A DNA stretch of 62,337 nucleotides, counting the filler, from Rhabdomonas costata (Eukaryota), in the NCBI GenBank assembly GCA_019059605.1. It is 34 parts of 34 records of this genome, joined end to end, with 100 filler letters (N's around TTAATTAATTAA, not from the genome) between each part and the next. Parts side by side here need not be neighbours in the genome. Positions count along the whole stretch, not along the records: positions 25,714 to 27,450 come from JAHMHO010009838.1; 33 more parts are not named here. One strand, 5' to 3'. The position numbers and the translations under genes are program-made. The notes beneath the pieces were generated by a model, which worked only from the letters and a program-made list of their open reading frames with translations, was not told the origin of the DNA and did not search any database. Positions 1 through 61,356 of this stretch are shown here, one piece after another (the stretch's first letter is position 1; the number at the start of each line of letters is the position of its first letter).

Positions 1-497
1 ACAGCTTTTGTTGTCGGAGGACTCGAGGTGTCGTCGGAGCATTTGTCCAGGATAATCTGGCCACGGATAGGGGGCAGTGCCCGGGATTCATGCGCACCAC
101 AGCGGAGAACGAGGAACCGTACGCTAGGCCAAGTTGAAGGCAAACGAGGAAAAGGGGGCACGCACTGGTGTCAGTCGCAGCTGATTGTTGGTGGATGCCC
201 CGGGCAGGAGGGACCAGGACTTGGGTAATCGCGTATGAGCGAAGGCAGCCATACGCTCGGAAAAGAAAGGCTTTGGAACCTTGTACTCAAAGACTGTTGC
301 CATTGATTGCTCAAGTAACAAACAGACCCACAACCCGTGACAAAAGGTCAGCGACAGTTGTGTTTCGGATCGAGCTAGGTTCATGGTGGGAATTTCCTGA
401 CTCAACGAGACCCACAGGGGCCGATCGGCGGATCAAATTAAAGATAAAATATCACGGCAGATCTAATGACAAATCGGGGAAATGGGGTCCAACGCAC

Positions 498-25591: not shown

Positions 25592-25989
25592 GTGAGTTTG
25601 TGGCGTTTCAGGTNNNNNNNNNNNNNNNNNNNNNNNNNNNNNNNNNNNNNNNNNNNNTTAATTAATTAANNNNNNNNNNNNNNNNNNNNNNNNNNNNNNN
25701 NNNNNNNNNNNNNGCGCAGCGTTTGGGAGGCCTGCTGATTATACAAAAGACCCCAGGCCTGCTTCGGCTTAGCCCTCTCCGTACGTGGTTCTGTAAAGGG
25801 GGGAGGGGTTACCTTTTTATTTTTGTGAACTTTTGTGACACAGTAGGGCACTGTTGTGCACTGTGAAAAAAATCGATTCGAGGTCTTCGAACTGTCTGTG
25901 AACTGTGGTTCCGTGGGGTTGTCGTTACGAAGCTTTTGTTATCAAGTCTTGAAACACAGCGCAGTTCGCTGCATGCTGCAGGAGGCACT

Positions 25990-27158
25990 CCCAACTCGCG
26001 AAAAAAATCACAGCCAGCACATAACAGAACATATCAGGCCACTTCACACAAAAGGGATGCTTCGACCGAACACGAAAACTGTAAGACTTTCGGCATTTCG
26101 GACTCAAAAGCGCGGATATCAACAAATGAAAACATATTTCCCGCAGGATTTGAGAGGGTTAGAAAACCTTTTTCAGAGGACGAAGCAAAAAGGACTTACC
26201 GCAGTTAGCACGAGCTTTCAGGAAAATGTTCCTTCCTTTGGACCTGCCCTTATCAAATAGGTGGTGGAGATGTCGTTGGTTTCCAAGGTTCTCTTCGCAA
26301 ACGTTTCCCACAAGTGCGGTTGGAGGCAGCTGCAGCCTTCAATTCCGGCCCCTGTTTGTTGCGTAGGAGGGTACAAAAAACGGGGTTTGAATTAATAGAA
26401 TTAATAATAGTAGTAAGCCAAGACCATAAAAATGGTAAACACACCACCCTGCAGCGTGTCCATTCGGCTCAACTGGGAGTATGCTTGTTGTTCCACGCTA
26501 TTCACCATTTCATTGGCCAGCGCAATCAATTCTTCAATTCGGCGACGGCCGCGATTGATCACAAAGTTGAACAGCGAAACATCCCCTTTCTTCTTTCTTT
26601 CCTCTGCCAGAGCCATCAGTTCACTCATGCTGGAGACTTCTTCATCCACAACTATTCGGGCTACCACCACACCAGAGTTTTGCCGCCTCTTCCTCTGCTT
26701 TGGCTGCTTCATTCACTGCACGCTGCGCTACGTGCGAGCTTCTATCCGCAGCTCATCGTTCTGCCGCTCGTCCATGTCTAGTGCGACCTGCATTTGCGGA
26801 GCAGCCAGCTCCGCCGGGTGCCTTTCGCTGTGTACTGGTCGTGTTTTGCAATGTAAGAGTATGCTTCGAAATACCCTCCTTGGCCCGAAGCAACGTTCAC
26901 CTTCAAGCTGCGCTGCACATCAAGGTAAGCTCTGGCCCTCGAGAAACGCTGCGGTCGGGCTATTTTTAGGCTTACGTGAAAGTGAACTCCTCCGTCTTCA
27001 TGACTTTCTTCACATGCAGCCCAAAACTGAACCGAGCGATTTCCATAAAGATTTCGAAAGGCTTCGGCAACTGCTTCGCCGAACTCCTTTTTGTAAAAAC
27101 CTCTTCCCCCAGCTTGCGGAAGGGTAATCAAATAAACACTTTACATAGCGGCTGCCAT
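25990..27158 (-). mobile_element. Decayed rolling-circle Rep gene (HUH endonuclease plus SF3 helicase), CRESS-DNA-like endogenous element, with intron 26352-26447
   Basis: Motif I VYLITLP, motif II HEDGGVHFHVSL, motif III YSYIAKHD; later GRSKGRNIFLKARANCGKSFLLRPL (degenerate SF3 Walker A) and SNPAGNMFSFV; in-frame stops, frameshifts and internal deletions. Confidence 0.85.
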
Positions 27159-30100
27159 GTCTGAATGAAAATGCAAGGAAAACAGCATTCCTTTTGTGCT
27201 CTTTTTTATGCCATCAACCAGTTAAAACCTTCTCAGCGTCACTACTTTTGAGGAGCAGGTTTTTGGAAGAATCTGTCACACGCTACTTTTGGACCGAGTC
27301 AACCTCTTAAATACAGCATGTGTTCCTTGATCACCTGTAATATTTCTTACACAACACATGGAAATATTGCCTGGAAGGTAACGCCTTTTTATACAACACA
27401 AAAAATATGATTTTCATTTAACCCTGCCGTTACTATTCGGGCTACCTCCANNNNNNNNNNNNNNNNNNNNNNNNNNNNNNNNNNNNNNNNNNNNTTAATT
27501 AATTAANNNNNNNNNNNNNNNNNNNNNNNNNNNNNNNNNNNNNNNNNNNNGGTTGTGGGGAAGTCTACGTAGCGAAGGTCGGCGGCATTGTCCGGGGGTT
27601 TGGCCCGGTTGCGACCGGCTCCTTGGCTGCCCTTTCGGGCAGAGTTGGGAGCGGCTCGGCCCCCGGCAGTCCCGAGAATAGCATCCGGAACGGGAGAGCG
27701 CACTTCAACCGCTTGGGAGCCGTTGGGAAGGCCGGGATCAAAGGCAGCAACTCGCGATGATCGACAGCCCATCAAATGCAGTCAAAAATACAACCCACTG
27801 AAACGAAAGCAATGCGGGGGGAGTAAATTTCAAGCGTGCATTTCTTCCCCGACCCATTAATCCCTTAATCCCGCGAGAGAGTACACACTTTTCGAATCAC
27901 GATGCTGCATGTTCACCGAGCCTGCCACCTCCAGCCGGCATCCACCCCTCGACATGTTATTCGTAGGCATAAAAAACTCATCAATATACGCATTACTCAT
28001 GCACTCCGTCTCTTGTCCAAGCGACAAGGTTCGTGCACCTCCTGGTGCAACCGAAGGTCCCGGTGGCGAGGGCCTAAGTCGCTGACAATCGTTGAAAAAC
28101 ACCGAACAGGTCACATAACTCCCATACCATACCATAGAGATTGAAGGACTGGGGGAAATTGGGGGAGGACATTTTGCACTAAACATTCACAACTGCAAAA
28201 GTTTTGGGTTTGGGCGAATTTTTGTTGCCGGGACTTAGCAGACAATGGGACAGGACTACTTAAGGGGAGGAGGCCAGTCCGTGGCAATGTAAATTTTTGG
28301 GCACGGGGGTTGAATAAACCGTGTCAGTTACATACAACATTATATGCGATAAATATGGCCGGGCGTTAGCAGTGAAAAACAGATAATGCCCCCCTCCTCA
28401 TTAGAACCAACCCTAATATAGGTACGGAAACACCAAGGATAGAACGAAAAATAAAATCCTCGCGTCTGTTCGCCCAACGCTTCGTCTGGATCCAAATCAC
28501 AATGCTGGAGACAAGCCTTGGAGACGATGAGGGCCAGTCCGTGCTCTGTTTTTTCTTGGCCCGCTGCCCAGAACCATCACCATTTCGGCCCACACGGGTG
28601 CCAGCGCAATACTCCAGGGCTTTATTCTTGGTTATAAGAGAGACCGCTTCTGCAAAGAAAACAAATGGTTTGTTTTCTTTTGGTTCGGGTGGTTAGGCTG
28701 GTTATGGTCCTTTCGCTTTCACGCACGCACCCAAGAAACACACGCGAGTTACATTACCCACATGACGTCTGATAGTGCAACTCCAGTGTACTCAGAATCC
28801 TGATGTCACAAGGAACAATGGGACCTCAACGAGGCCCGCATTGTCACAGGATGTCACATGAAAGCGAAGATAACACTACTCTACACAAACTGCGACCACC
28901 GGGACTGCTGTGCGGACTCAACACCGTTGAGGTTGTGGTCCCAACGAAAGTCTCTGCCGTCGGCTGCTGTGAAAGCTTTGTCCCCTTTAGAGGCACGGGG
29001 CTCTTGTTTGCACTGCAGCTCACTTCGAACATGAGACCGAAAGCAGTTAGGTGCCTTTCTGGGGCGCTTCGGCGGGGGACCCCGTACAATTTCCGCATCG
29101 GCTCCCTCACTGTCAGGAGAGTCATCTTCAGTGGGCTCAAGGAACCTAAAAGGACAAACATGAAAATTGCGAGGACATCGAATGAGCTGAATCCCGATCC
29201 TGTGTGTCAAGCGATAATCACAGCGAAGAAGTCAGCTTAAATGTAGAACCTACTGAAAGCAATTGGCAAAACTTTCCAGAAAAAATGNNNNNNNNNNNNN
29301 NNNNNNNNNNNNNNNNNNNNNNNNNNNNNNNTTAATTAATTAANNNNNNNNNNNNNNNNNNNNNNNNNNNNNNNNNNNNNNNNNNNNTTTGTTGGTTGAT
29401 AAAAACATGTCACCTTTCTGACCCGAATGACTGAGGGCACCACCGAGGCGCATCCATCGGCGTCTTGCCAGTGTTAACAGGTGATGAAAGGTGAACCAGA
29501 AAAGCGCCCTCAAAACGAGGGTGCGGAGAAATACTAAAACACCCCAGAGTGTGAGCGGACAGAAAGTGTGACTGAATCAAGCAACTGCTTTTCATCATAT
29601 ACAGACATTGACACAAATGAACTTCCAATTACCACGTGGCTAATGTTGTTCCAAAACTAATGCCCAGAACCACTATAATTTTGTTCTGGATCACTTTTGT
29701 CAAAAAATTAATACGCACTGTACATACGTTTCAGAAAATTTGTACAAGATTGTTCACATGGAGTCCTTGTATATTCTCTAATCTTAATGCAAGCATTTCA
29801 TGCAACTGGTGCATATTTAAGCTGAATATCTGCACCACTGTTTGAACAATAAATTAATTTGAATCTCGGAGAATAATAAAGACACTGTGGCACAGGTACA
29901 AACGTTCTGGAATGTGCAAACTAAAAATTAAGCAATTTACAGTAATGAACACAAGAGAATGGGTGAAAGGTACACAAAACAAACAAAGACAATAAATAAC
30001 AGAATGATTCTAAATGCAGAGACTTAAACAGGATAGGAATATGATGGTTACAAAATGGGGTTGGTGGATGATAGTTCAAAACTGCATGTAACGGAACGTA

Positions 30101-51793: not shown

Positions 51794-52882
51794 CCCCTAG
51801 CCCGATTGGCGGGGTTGATCTTGCCCAAGCCCCCAAACATCCGGTTGAAATGCCAGCCGACGTAGCCCCGAAGGGCGGAGCCGTACAGCCCGCGGATTTT
51901 CCCCAGAGCCTTTCCAAAACCATCCCGCACAAGGGCCTCGGGGTACAGCACGTCCAGCAGGAACTCTACAAACACGGGCCCAGGGACACCCTCCTGGGCA
52001 ATCTGGAAAGCCTGTAGGAAACGGGAAGGGGGGAAGGAAGGAAGGAAGGAAGCCCGAATGGAAAAACGGGTGTGTAGGACAGCGGCTTCTCCACAGGGCC
52101 ATACCTCTTAAATTCTACATGCTGCTGATGTGCAGAGTGCGTGGGGAAAGTACTGGGGGCAGGGGGCTCGAAGGCTGAGAATATCCTAAAGGCAGACTGA
52201 CTTGGGACCAATTGGTGGTGATGAGATGCATCGAAAAATGGTCATAGTTATTCATACTTCATTTTCAGAGCTTGATGCCAAATACCGAGGAGAAGGGCTC
52301 CCAGGAGGAAACCTTCAGCAATCTGTATATAAGCCTGTACACAGGTAATGCCACAGAACTCTTTCTGGCTTCTCCTTTGCGATTTGCCACATTCCCACGC
52401 ACCGAGACACACTCATTTCCAATACATCATGTTCATCTAATTCTTTCTCACGTTTTCCCTTGCACTAAGTCTTTTTTCGAACCTTTTTGCTGGGGCTACG
52501 ATATTAAAAATGGACACAACGCCAAGAGCCGCCACTCCCTAGGGAAGCTAACCTTCCCATCCTTCTCCAAGGACCAACTTACTGCGCGGCAAGCACGCAA
52601 CCGCCAAAAACAGTCCGTTGCGCCTTCCCTCCCTCTTGCGTACAGACCTGAAGCAGCTTGGGGCGGATCTCCGCCGCGGTGCGGACAGTGACGGCCCACT
52701 TGCAGTGAGGCCTGAGCATCGCCAGTTGGTCAATGTCCTGCAGCGAGCCCTTGCCGCGGAACAGCGAGGGCGCGGCGCCCGCGAGCAGCAGCATCGGGGA
52801 TTGCGCCAGCTGGGCGTTCTTCACCGCGGTGACGGTATTGGAGATCCCCGGGCCGGCAGTCACCACGGCCACCCCAACTGTG
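51794..52882 (-). CDS. ILVBL: ILVBL/HACL2-like thiamine-diphosphate enzyme (exons 52648-52882, ~51794-52011)
   Basis: TVGVAVVTAGPGISNTVTAVKNAQLAQSPMLLLAGAA...GSLQDIDQ|AFQIAQEGVPGPVFVEFLLDVLYP. Confidence 0.9.
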
Positions 52883-54210
52883 CTGCACCCACCGTCCCGC
52901 GTCACATTTCCGCACATCCATTGAACTGAACAAGATCTAAAACCTGGCCAGTATTTGTCACGTATCACACCCACAGCGACTCTGATGACGATAATAAAAG
53001 GTGAGCAGAAGGAGCCGAGCTGTTCATCAGCTGTTCATCAGAAAGGTACTCATAAATATCCCAGGGTTGCATTGCCGCACAAATCCTGATATGCGCATGA
53101 AAAGGCAATACACCCCGCATCGAGATCACCGTCATTAAGAAACAGTACCACAACAACNNNNNNNNNNNNNNNNNNNNNNNNNNNNNNNNNNNNNNNNNNN
53201 NTTAATTAATTAANNNNNNNNNNNNNNNNNNNNNNNNNNNNNNNNNNNNNNNNNNNNGGGGGGTGGTGGGCGCCTTGCTGTATCCTCTATTTATGGGAAA
53301 GACAGACTGACTTCGTTCGGAATTCTGCCTTCAACTATGCGTCATGGTATAAAGAATGTCTCGTTGCACTCCTTTTTGGTGTGGTTGTGTATGGACTGCA
53401 AGCTTGTGTCACGAGCGTTGCGAAATTTTGGGACATTTTGAGTAGTGCGGTCGGTGTTGAGTCGCTCCCACTCTTCCTCCTACAATTCTATTCTCTCTTT
53501 CAATTACTGTTCTCACTTACAAAGCGAATCCAACAGGGTCATCCCGCTGTTTATATCTATCGTTGTCTGTGCTATTATCGAAAGATCGAGCGACCGCTTT
53601 TTGTCGGCTTGTCGTTCCTGGAGCTCCCGCCCTTCGGGAGCGTCCTTTTTTGTTCCTGAAGGGTGTCTTTTATGCTTTTTAATGCGAATGCGTGTTTCTT
53701 TTTCCCTGATTGAACTTGTCATGGTTGGACATGCTGCTTCTGTACTGATGTCCAGAGAGAAGCGGAGACATCCAGCCGACATCTTCTTGAGCTCTCTGTG
53801 GAAGTTGCCCGCCGAGCGTGGGAGACCTCTCGGGGGTCCGTTTTGCTTGCCCAGGCATGCCGCATCCCCAAGCACAAAACGCTGCCTTCTTTCGGAATGC
53901 GTCGCAGGAGAGTACCTTCGCTGGCCTACGACCATGCTGCAGCACTACTGTTCTGAGGAAGCGTGAGATGTCAATTCGATTTCTTCTTTCTCCCCTGAAA
54001 GCAATGCTTGCCGACTGAAATTGTAGTTCTGATACGTGGTGGAAATTTCTTGAGGTTAGGTCATGTTAAGTTGAAAGGTTGAAGTTATGAAGGAAGGGTT
54101 ATAAGGAAGTATTAAGGATGATGAACCTGCGGAGAACATGGGGAAATTTTGTGGGGATGGGGAAATTCTTGAAAAAAACAATATTTCAATAAAGTCATTC
54201 ACTTCGAAAG

Positions 54211-56829: not shown

Positions 56830-57765
56830 NNNNNNNNNNNNNNNNNNNNNNNNNNNNNNNNNNNNNNNNNNNNTTAATTAATTAANNNNNNNNNNNNNNN
56901 NNNNNNNNNNNNNNNNNNNNNNNNNNNNNTTTTTTTTTTCGCCGTTTTTTGGTGCTTTTCCGGTTAATTAGGTCAGCACACTTCCTTCACTCAGACATCG
57001 CTTAACGCGCACCAAACGGGGACTTGAGAATCTGAGTCAACTTCTGTGTGTCTAGTGTTTGCTTTCTTGTAGGGGACAGTGTGGCTCGCTTCTTGTCATT
57101 TTTGGTCTTTTGTTCGTTTCCTCTACACGACGAAGAGTTGTGTGCAAGTTCAAGATTTCTGTCCCTGAACATTGGTTTGCTCGTGTGTTGCCGTCGTCTG
57201 CGGATTTTTTTTTACCCTGCAGCATGGATTGTTTTTCAGAGGATATCAGTATTTTCTTGGTTTTTTGTGTTGCTTTTTACCCTTTCTCGTAAATGTGAAG
57301 TTGAAACCAACGCCGGTTTCTGTCCTGCGTCGATTGGACATCCAATTCTACCCGTTACGTTGGACGGCCGTCCGAATACCCAGCGAAAGCAAAGCTCCTT
57401 AACTCTGCTCCGAGGCTTCAGCAATGATGCAAACAATCCAAAACGGAAAGTGCCTTCTTCTGCTTTGTCGCCGAATCAACTTATGGCCACTTGAGGTTCT
57501 ACCACTCTTATTGAAGTACACCTGACGAAACGCGTCAAGATTATTTCCACTACCTGCTGACATCTTGTCCTCGTCTGAATGACCGTTAGGCCATTATGGT
57601 TTGCTCACAGAAGCCTATTCATGCGCTACTGCAACATTTGGCTCGTATAGTCGTTCTTGGGAATTCTACTGCCGTTTTGGTGATTAAATCGTTCTCGCAT
57701 GTCCACCTTCTTGCCGCGAAACAGTGCCCTTTTACTTTACTTTCCTATTTTAATTCTCACCAACA

Positions 57766-58665
57766 ATGCCTACGTGTGGTCTTCTACCTCGCGCTTCCCG
57801 TGCGTTTCATGCCATTGCGACCTTTGCCACAAACTCAAATGTTCTCATGGTAATTTCTCTCGGTATTTTAATGGGAACCTCCTACGCACTGAGCCATGTC
57901 AACTACATGCTCTTTCACATCTTGGTCGAGCTGTTCAGCGTGATTGTTGCCGCCACAACCGCGATTTTGGCCTTCCACACTCGCCAAATCGCAGACAACG
58001 TGGTATTTATGGCCCTGGGGATTTGCTACGGTGTTACCGGGGCCCTTGACCTTGCCCACGTGCTGACCTACAAAGGAATGAACCTAACGGAATTCGATAA
58101 AAACCCCGATGCCGCAGCCCAGCTGTGGATCGCAGCGCGATTTCTGGAGAGCGCTTCGATGGTGGTGATCATTGCCTTCCACTCGCACCTGAAGGGCAGG
58201 AAGTGGGCCTCGAAGTCGTTCCTGGGGTGCATGCTGCTAGGCACGGTGATGGTGTTTGCGTCGATCTTCTGGTGGCGGAGCTTTCCTGTGTGCAACCCCG
58301 GCACGGGGCTGACGCCATTTAAGAAGGGGATGGAGTTTGTGATATGCGCGGTTTGGGTGGTGGTGCTGTGCCTGCTGCTGTACCCGTGGTGGCCTGTGAA
58401 GGTTGGGTATTGGCTCCGGTACGAGCTGCCCAACATGGGGGCTCACAGCCACCGAAGGCTCATTGCTGGGGTGCTGTTCAGCATCGTAGCGGAGGTTCTG
58501 TTTGCGGTGTACGTGGACGTGTACAGCCTAATCAACATCCTGGGCCACTGCTTCAAAGTGGCTGCGTACACATGCTGGTACCTGGCGATTGTGCGGGAGA
58601 TGCTGGAGGACCCGTACACGGTGCTGTTCTCGTCGATCTGCGAGACGAACAAAGAGCTCCTGGAG
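57766..58665 (+). CDS. MASE3 membrane sensor domain protein, intronless, truncated at the contig end
   Basis: NYMLFHILVELFSVIV, LDLAHVLTYKGM, QLWIAARFLES, GLTPFKKGMEFVI, YVDVYSLINILGHCFKV, LEDPY. Confidence 0.92.
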
Positions 58666-60309: not shown

Positions 60310-60658
60310 TCAGGAAGCATGAGAACAGTCCATCGTTCCACTGGCACAGCAGCAAAAACATGGCATAGTAGGTAGGGGCCTGGTCCCGTTCATATGGGGT
60401 GAGACATTAGAGCAACCACCACAGTACAAAAGGGGTGCTGTGTGTATGTCGGTTTTTCTTAGCAAATACTTTGCCGTTGTTAAACACTCCGCTGTATGGG
60501 TNNNNNNNNNNNNNNNNNNNNNNNNNNNNNNNNNNNNNNNNNNNNTTAATTAATTAANNNNNNNNNNNNNNNNNNNNNNNNNNNNNNNNNNNNNNNNNNN
60601 NTGTGTTGGGTGTGGTGGGTAGCGAGTAGTAGAGCGAGGAGGGGGGCGGGATGCACAC

Positions 60659-60810: not shown

Positions 60811-61356
60811 CTGGAGTGGAGATAGTGCAGTGGCACAACGGGGCATCGCACCGCATTCATCAAAAGATGACTGCCCCCCATCTACACAATGTCAAGTTTC
60901 ATAAACTCTTCCAATACAATTCAGTTCAGCCAAATTGAGATGAATCTCATCGTCATTCACAGTTCTTCGTGTCAATACGGGACTTGGCAAACTCAACTCC
61001 CAACAATCATAAGTGGAAAGTTGACTAACGGATTCCCTTTTCGTTGGAGGGCGAAGCCGAAGCAGGCCCGGGGTCTTTAGTACCGTACACACAGTGGGCC
61101 TCCCGAAACGCTCCGTGGCCGGTCCTTGCACCCTCAGGCCGGTGCCCACCCCTGCTCCTTGGCGGCTCTTCCTTTTTGATCTTGTGCCGCCACTTTCCCC
61201 AGCGCAGCGGAGGGTTTATCGAGGGCACCCACAATAATGTAGCACATGGCAGTAATATGACAATGAAATACCAAACCTGCACAGTTCGTCCGCCATAGCA
61301 AAAATCGCTCGCAGTGCTAAACCCCACCCCCTCTCAAATGAAGCTGTCTTACGAAC

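Follow-up and report, generated by a model that had tools for sequence, protein, structure and literature searches.

A decayed, apparently two-exon Rep gene in an unplaced contig of the Rhabdomonas costata assembly, possibly from a family of capsid-less HUH–SF3 elements

A Rep remnant on an unplaced contig

An unplaced contig of the Rhabdomonas costata assembly (GCA_019059605.1) carries the remnant of a gene for a replication protein (Rep) in which an HUH endonuclease would be joined to a superfamily 3 (SF3) helicase, and this remnant and its protein family are the subject of the present work. The contig, JAHMHO010009838.1, was analysed as part of a stretch of 62,337 nucleotides, here called the window, which is an artificial join of 34 size-sorted unplaced contigs (1729–1739 bp) with 100-nt linkers of the form N..TTAATTAATTAA..N between them. 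As the pieces are artificially joined, gene neighbours across a linker carry no genomic context. All coordinates count along the window. The Rep remnant lies on the minus strand at 25990–27158 and spans the full extent of the gene. Its features are given below from the 5′ end, with matches to a family profile of 459 positions that was built from 16 long members; P0001, P0016, P0151 and P0155 are related proteins described in the following sections.

25714–27450, no strand assigned: unplaced contig with the element, with a linker (100 nt, artificial) on each side and no companion gene piece
27141–27158, minus: start region, with in-frame ATGs at 27158 and 27146 and then an immediate in-frame TAA at 27143–27141
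26844–27140, minus: HUH (Y1) endonuclease domain, profile E 3.4e-34, profile positions 12–130
27137–27117, minus: motif I, VYLITLP
26984–26967, minus: HUH motif, HFHVSL
26861–26844, minus: motif III, YSYIAK
26675–26843, minus: low-complexity linker with HSERHP at 26832–26815, from frameshift-aware alignment to P0001
26448–26674, minus: helical oligomerisation-type domain, profile E 5.7e-24, positions 118–256; helices H168–H246 in the family model
26622–26599, minus: ELMALAEE, within the helical domain
26574–26548, minus: LFNFVINRG, within the helical domain, which also contains SRMDTLQ
26352–26447, minus: intron-like insert of 96 nt, GT..AG, with a pyrimidine tract, in phase, with two TAA codons
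26262–26351, minus: Cys-x-Cys...W block at the start of exon 2, CSCLQPHLW at 26334–26308; C249 and W257 are invariant in the family
26162–26260, minus: SF3 Walker A segment, GRNIFLKARANCGKS at 26236–26192; profile E 9.6e-14, 88% identical to P0155 over 33 aa
26115–26174, minus: NPAGNMFSF segment after Walker A
26053–26114, minus: deletion point and the sequence beyond it, with ESEMPKV at 26105–26085 (Arg-finger region), a frame change, and VFVFGRSIP at 26079–26053
25990–26052, minus: weak remnant of a C-terminal CxxC tail, LLCAGCDFF at 26027–26001, its likeness judged by eye

Three frames of the contig match the family profile (E 3.4e-34, 5.7e-24 and 9.6e-14) and together cover positions 12–347 of the 459, a homology to Rep that lies far beyond chance. 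When family proteins were compared with the window by tblastn, all 206 matches fell inside 26000–27200, and no further Rep copy was seen in the window outside that interval. Apart from the stop at its very beginning, the HUH domain is open down to 26844. Curated profiles recognise this piece only below threshold, namely PF23343 (REP_ORF2-G2P; E 1e-3, 19.8 bits against a gathering cut-off of 27.8) and Gemini_AL1 (E 2e-3). Of the eight window pieces compared with Pfam, six gave no match at all and a seventh had matches that were weak and unrelated.

An initial annotation, made from the sequence alone, had described three rolling-circle motifs, a helical linker and a CxC..W segment, and we find all of these on the minus strand. 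It had also described a degenerate Walker A; this is present, with the first P-loop glycine not conserved, but the helicase is more than degenerate, its core having been deleted. After a frame change near 26161, NPAGNMFSFVDI is read down to 26115. On the far side of the deletion, VFVFGRSIP is identical to P0155 at nine of nine residues (E 0.01) and colinear with it.

Decay of the gene

Breaks in the gene were mapped by frameshift-aware alignment to the closest relatives and by codon-level reading. There are two in-frame stops, a TAA at 27143 and a TGA at 26755 in the linker, and the frame changes at six places or more (near 26834, 26778, 26674, 26262 and 26161, and between ESEMPKV and VFVFGRSIP). 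About 73 codons of P0155 are absent, including Walker B (VVLLDDYRY), LLLLDG and motif C, and the family profile finds no Walker B in any frame of the window copy. What is left of the SF3 signature is Walker A and the Arg-finger region, with Walker B and motif C deleted.

Several other explanations for the broken frames could be set aside. A variant genetic code was ruled out, as both TAA and TGA occur in frame along the homologous path, with a TAG nearby. Introns cannot account for every break: only the 96-nt insert is bounded by GT..AG, in phase, and restores colinearity when removed, and the remaining breaks are frame changes inside conserved sequence. A plain truncation of the 3′ part of the gene was ruled out by the colinear matches to P0155 past the gap. 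The stops, frameshifts and deletions that had been taken as signs of a fossil are therefore real, except that one of the breaks is the intron-like insert, and the fossil state itself is borne out by the stops, the frame changes and the loss of some 73 codons. To judge from its reading frames, the window copy is a dead, non-functional fossil without a helicase core. With its premature stops, its frame changes and no helicase core, it would be incapable of the replication mechanism that we propose below for intact relatives.

An intron-like insert

The 96-nt insert is divisible by three in length and has a GC content of 35%, against 51% in exon 1. Once it is removed, SR.D.L and CSC are 13 residues apart, exactly as in the uninterrupted P0016. 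The open reading frames (ORFs) of the closest relatives, P0001 and P0151, end at the insert point, and their short tails resemble the window insert read in another frame. P0155 is the helicase half of the P0151 lineage and forms a separate intact ORF; the contigs of P0151 and P0155 are both 2291 bp long, and the two proteins probably represent one intact two-exon gene. On these grounds the insert appears to behave as an intron of the spliceosomal type that is common to the closest intact relative. An intron position shared by the family as a whole is unsupported, with only five of 162 predictions ending at profile positions 257–259, and the Rep genes of two related loci described below (L001 and L002) are uninterrupted.

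Membership and predicted fold of the protein family

A 120-aa piece of the HUH domain was compared by phmmer with 1.84 billion protein cluster representatives, giving 406 matches at E ≤ 1e-3, 38 at ≤ 1e-10 and two at ≤ 1e-30. The best match was P0001, which is 68% identical (E 6.8e-40). Full-length members have about 450 aa, and most of the members listed are fragments. Invariant in the family alignment are the HUH motif and a single Tyr in the motif YxxK (Y100/K103). The alignment also contains the Cys...W block, a Walker A of the form GxxNCGK[ST], a Walker B (EVIxLNDFRW), the motifs FATS and MMxxRW, and a C-terminal PCxxCF.

Pfam profiles were then compared for 20 relatives. PF23343 matched 13 of the 20 at E ≤ 0.01, with only P0001 (29.2 bits) above the cut-off of 27.8. 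The helicase profiles PPV_E1_C and Parvo_NS1 (PF01057) matched six and three relatives, respectively, and eight of the 20 had a match to one or the other; one relative passed the cut-off for PPV_E1_C and one, P0102, passed that for Parvo_NS1 (24.6 bits against 20). Parvo_NS1 had no match in the window pieces. PF02407 (Viral_Rep) matched neither the window pieces nor any of the 20 relatives, the cut-off of Gemini_AL1 was not reached in either set, and the PF00910 helicase was seen in one relative only, below threshold.

An AlphaFold model of P0016, computed with the family alignment, had a mean pLDDT of 81 and a pTM of 0.52. When this model was compared with the PDB using Foldseek, the whole chain matched Rep68 of adeno-associated virus 2 (AAV2; E 6e-11), the C-terminal half matched papillomavirus E1 (4e-8), AAV Rep40 and SV40 LTag, and the N-terminal domain matched the Rep endonuclease of a redondovirus, Vientovirus, with a TM-score of 0.70 and 21% identity. 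Among predicted viral structures the top matches were U94 of human herpesvirus 6 (HHV-6) and many parvovirus NS1 proteins (together 6e-13 to 1e-10), and E1; the first annotated Rep of a CRESS-DNA virus (circular single-stranded DNA that encodes a Rep) stood at rank 26. A sequence-profile search of the PDB was in weak agreement (9pqq Rep, E 3e-3; SIRV1 ORF119, E 5e-3). The language-model neighbours of full-length P0016 were mostly eukaryotic clusters, followed by parvovirus NS1 clusters, and those of the N-terminal half, represented by P0001, were CRESS Rep clusters. The nearest atlas cluster was 83% Eukaryota, with Cnidaria the commonest group, and in another cluster Perkinsozoa were commonest.

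Profiles and predicted folds together indicate that the family has an HUH plus SF3 architecture, as the initial annotation had supposed. The nickase is predicted to be CRESS-like and the helicase NS1/E1-like, and the whole protein, by modelled fold, is nearer to parvovirus NS1 than to CRESS Reps. The earlier assignment to the CRESS type accordingly holds for the endonuclease domain but not for the whole fold, which is nearest to NS1, Rep68, U94 and E1, and no Viral_Rep match was obtained. A likeness to uncharacterised Rep–SF3 proteins of invertebrates, suggested in the initial annotation, agrees with the mostly eukaryotic, cnidarian-rich composition of the nearest atlas cluster.

Searches of 72,556 plasmid records, 50,697 phage records and a collection of prokaryote genomes gave no relatives of the family. 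A prokaryotic, plasmid or phage source was rejected on this basis, the only NCBIfam match being to a trivial P-loop. Four pattern-based scans of 2.9 million viral contigs, with a reach limited to fairly close relatives, also found none. No description of the family was found in the open-access full-text literature, and the family is apparently undescribed.

Another decayed copy and a shared 3′ non-coding region

A metagenome locus, L003, is 71% identical at the nucleotide level to the HUH region of the window copy, and the translation of its Rep shows a stop and frame changes of its own. When the HUH regions of the two copies are compared by codon position, 15 (position 1), 21 (position 2) and 47 (position 3) of ~100 sites differ (chi-square p 3e-5), and the codon differences comprise 22 synonymous and 38 non-synonymous changes. 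The excess at position 3 indicates that most of the divergence arose under protein selection, before both copies died. The window copy and L003 died independently of each other.

Beyond the 3′ end of the gene, the window contig has a non-coding region that is partly shared with L003.

25824–25966, minus: 3′ non-coding module; 25966–25889 is common to L003, with a score of 57 against a shuffle maximum of 27
25824, 25855 and 25897, plus: three iteron-like copies of TGTGAACTGT in the same orientation, within 83 bp

Three of the five iteron matches in the window fall within those 83 bp, the chance expectation for the whole window being 4.4. In L003 the shared block supplies the left arm of a hairpin (1240–1330) whose ~40-bp stem is built from ACAGTTCACA/TGTGAACTGT repeats and which is more stable than any of 200 shuffles (z −7.5, 0/200). 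The 5′ flanks of the window copy and L003 showed no likeness (score 21, where shuffles reached up to 28).

Hairpins, repeating units and transposases in related loci

Four further related loci were compared. L001 and L002 encode an intact Rep of 454 aa that is 85% identical to P0016. On the 3′ side of this gene is a hairpin (L001:1845–1943) with 25-nt arms, ACGTAGCCC repeats and an AT-rich loop (z −7.2 in L001), and after the hairpin, in both loci, we see pieces of a DDE_3 transposase of the Tc1/mariner type (E 9e-11; L001:2094–3484, and both ends of L002). L002 repeats itself every ~3855 bp; the repeats are 96–99% identical and offset by a single base, which points to a tandem or multicopy unit and away from an exact overlap made by the assembler.

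L004 and L005 have HUH domains that are ~35% identical to the query. They overlap head to tail to give a unit of ~2.4 kb, which carries an intact 371-aa transposase (L004:403–1521; L005:144–1259) and a 36-nt inverted repeat (L005:1713–1908), in which paired iterons can be read by eye. The transposases of L001 and L004/L005 are 33% identical (E 2e-46). Related transposases adjoin Rep in two lineages with HUH domains only ~35–40% identical. An inverted repeat stands beside Rep in L001, L003 and L005, in each case with arms made of two tandem, lineage-specific iterons of 9–13 nt and with an AT-rich loop. These iteron inverted repeats could be the origin used by Rep, or a pair of transposon ends.

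In L003, which belongs to the window copy's own lineage, a segment upstream of the decayed Rep (54–140, minus strand) marginally matches the L001 transposase around NPIEN (E 0.03; 48% over 29 aa).

A capsid-like ORF was found in none of the five related loci (L001–L005).

One alternative is domestication, in which a host lineage co-opted a Rep-helicase that gained an intron and came under selection, and the window copy would be a dead paralogue, a pseudogene. The spliceosomal-type intron common to the closest intact relative and the signature of purifying selection are what such a gene might leave, and Rep-like host genes that are conserved and expressed are reported in passages of Liu et al. 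2011 (PMC3198968). However, at least two sources, the window and L003, contain decayed copies, the gene in relatives is adjoined by iteron hairpins and by cyclic or tandem units, and the listed members are mostly fragments, as is typical of repeats. We regard domestication as very unlikely.

Origin of the contig

Whether the contig belongs to the sequenced organism was considered from its composition and its company. Nine of the ten dinucleotide measures of the Rep contig lie within 1.4 standard deviations (SD) of the other 33 contigs, the exception being GC at +2.65 SD. One of those contigs (56930–58665) encodes a MASE3 membrane sensor in an uninterrupted ORF of 304 aa (57754–58665, plus strand; E 1.9e-56). 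MASE3 is mainly a bacterial domain. This suggests that the MASE3 contig is a bacterial contaminant or carries a transferred gene, and that the bin of unplaced contigs may be mixed. The dinucleotide test is weak, because the MASE3 contig has a similar signature. A short repeat links the Rep contig to one other.

25715–25777, no strand assigned: short repeat that pairs with 61047–61115, 78% over 69 nt, in opposite orientation

This 69-nt repeat, between the Rep contig and the contig at 60602–62337, is the sole similarity between contigs among the 34. The Rep contig could still be foreign to the sequenced organism, derived from another eukaryote (a contaminant or an associate) or from its episome: it is unplaced and only 1.7 kb long, its bin includes the MASE3 contig, and its close relatives come from environmental assemblies. 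Set against this are the dinucleotide signature, which fits the other contigs (as does that of the MASE3 contig, so that the test is a weak one), and the repeat held in common with another contig. A foreign source is, in our judgement, improbable.

Interpretation

We read the contig, in what we consider an evenly balanced judgement, as a dead two-exon Rep gene with a 3′ iteron region, derived from a family of capsid-less Rep elements in eukaryotic DNA. A capsid-less element is favoured by the combination of family membership, HUH/SF3 fold, decay, intron, iteron hairpins, cyclic or tandem units and lack of a capsid gene.

In intact relatives, Rep would bind the paired iterons that form a long hairpin beside its own gene and would nick single-stranded DNA with the Tyr of YxxK. 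A hexamer of the SF3 helicase would then unwind the DNA, and rolling-circle or rolling-hairpin synthesis could copy the unit into circles or tandem arrays. Insertion into the chromosome might be supplied by the co-resident DDE transposase of the Tc1/mariner type. We infer every one of these steps from features of the sequences.

Several observations weigh against this interpretation. The iteron region of the window folds weakly (z −2.1, with six of 200 shuffles as stable), the window holds a single Rep copy only, and no transposase match in the window is significant (best E 0.12). In L004/L005 the Rep is cut to its first ~89 residues. The hairpins might instead belong to the transposon of the transposase, as its terminal repeats lying end to end, or they might be nested miniature inverted-repeat transposable elements (MITEs), and the adjacency of Rep and transposase may reflect only the abundance of Tc1/mariner elements in the hosts, or coincidence. 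There may be foreign DNA among the unplaced contigs, with a bacterial-type MASE3 gene in at least one of them. Finally, a capsid-bearing viral relative could have been missed, as the scans of viral contigs find only fairly close relatives.

The main rival explanation is an endogenous viral element. Here a parvovirus-like or CRESS-like single-stranded DNA (ssDNA) virus, itself unclassified, would have left its rep gene by chance integration, with the capsid gene elsewhere or never integrated. The nearest folds are indeed those of viral NS1 and Rep proteins, and the HUH domain is CRESS-like by language-model features. Spliced rep genes occur in some ssDNA viruses. Integrations of Rep only are common, according to parts of Liu et al. 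2011 (PMC3198968). The five related loci, however, contain no capsid gene, the four scans of 2.9 million viral contigs gave no match, and the nearest atlas clusters are mostly eukaryotic. A 3′ non-coding module conserved between two separately decayed copies, and a recurrent DDE transposase neighbour, also speak against a chance integration. We think a viral origin of this kind unlikely, if less so than either domestication or a foreign contig.

A bolder version of the capsid-less element can be put forward only as a doubtful proposal. Among eukaryotic mobile elements with an HUH protein, the family may represent a third kind next to Helitrons and Replitrons, a capsid-less unit of ~2–4 kb that encodes a single-tyrosine Rep with an SF3 helicase of the NS1/E1 type, forms circles or tandems from a lineage-specific iteron hairpin, and is inserted into chromosomes by a dedicated clade of DDE transposases of the Tc1/mariner type. 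Such an element would be a hybrid of replicon and cut-and-paste transposon.

Sequences derived from Rep are already well known in eukaryotic genomes. The present family differs in that nearly every curated Rep profile scores it below cut-off, in its spliceosomal-type intron, and in a CRESS-like nickase apparently joined to a helicase of the parvovirus/papillomavirus type. Its relatives have an iteron hairpin and a DDE transposase in place of a capsid, and the possible coupling of the two is worth following up. If the association is true, it bears on the exchange of modules between ssDNA replicons and transposons, and on the origin of parvovirus-type replication proteins.

Comparison with known systems

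The family resembles parvovirus NS1, AAV Rep68/78 and HHV-6 U94 in that a single polypeptide has an HUH nickase at its N terminus together with a helical region for oligomerisation and an SF3 helicase. NS1 and AAV Rep also give the best whole-chain fold matches, and like them the relatives have a long imperfect hairpin beside the gene. Identity to these proteins is only 11–16%, however, and no VP capsid gene was seen in the related loci. In contrast to Parvoviridae, which have two telomeres, the relatives have one hairpin per repeating unit, and their units are cyclic or tandem in assembly. The spliceosomal-type intron in the gene and the DDE transposase neighbour in relatives are further differences from parvovirus NS1.

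With CRESS-DNA viral Reps (Cressdnaviricota; redondovirus, PCV2) the family shares the Y1 HUH motifs I–III and the same domain order, and for Vientovirus Rep the likeness extends to the endonuclease fold (TM-score 0.70). It differs from them in having no PF02407 match and a helicase half that is nearer to E1/NS1. Unlike CRESS viruses, the related loci show no capsid, and a canonical nonanucleotide loop was not recognised, by eye only. As for circularity of the Cressdnaviricota type, units of 3.85 kb and 2.4 kb, assembled as cycles or tandems, are seen in relatives together with hairpins, and the window contig is a linear fragment. Parvovirus and CRESS Reps are themselves only loosely linked, according to sections of Kazlauskas et al. 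2019 (PMC6668415).

The nearest precedents, by description, are elements in Liu et al. 2011 (PMC3198968). Passages of that paper describe, in the truffle Tuber, a geminivirus-like Rep ORF together with transposase ORFs and terminal inverted repeats (TIRs), and, as integrated elements with an NS1/E1 helicase, DENSOV_HM in Hydra (with a PPV_E1_C-type helicase), the planarian PIVE and an element of an acorn worm. Those elements and the present family, as far as descriptions can be compared, are alike in consisting of repeated, decayed Rep- or NS1-like genes in eukaryotic genomes. The Tuber element differs, again by its description in these passages, in that its Rep is geminivirus-like, whereas the present family stays below the Gemini_AL1 cut-off.

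Helitrons and Replitrons are, in the relevant parts of PMC10288648, capsid-less eukaryotic elements with an HUH Rep and with hairpins or short repeats near their ends, in all of which the present family resembles them. In the same source, the Rep of Helitrons has two tyrosines and is fused to an SF1B helicase, and Replitrons have no helicase. By this account the family is unlike Helitrons in having a single invariant Tyr (YxxK) and an SF3 helicase in place of the Pif1-like SF1B enzyme, and unlike Replitrons in having a fused helicase, which is partly retained in the window copy.

Other features of the window

An Rfam search of the window gave no match, and Pfam matches were found for two of the 34 long window ORFs. 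The Rep contig also has a short internal repeat at its end.

27432–27450, no strand assigned: 19-nt stretch at the contig end that repeats the Rep-gene segment 26651–26669 at 18 of 19 positions (E 0.003 in the self comparison)

This may come from a further truncated copy or be an artefact of assembly. Elsewhere in the window, a piece of an ORF at 52582–53034 (minus strand) matches the N-terminal domain of thiamine-pyrophosphate enzymes (E 1e-12).

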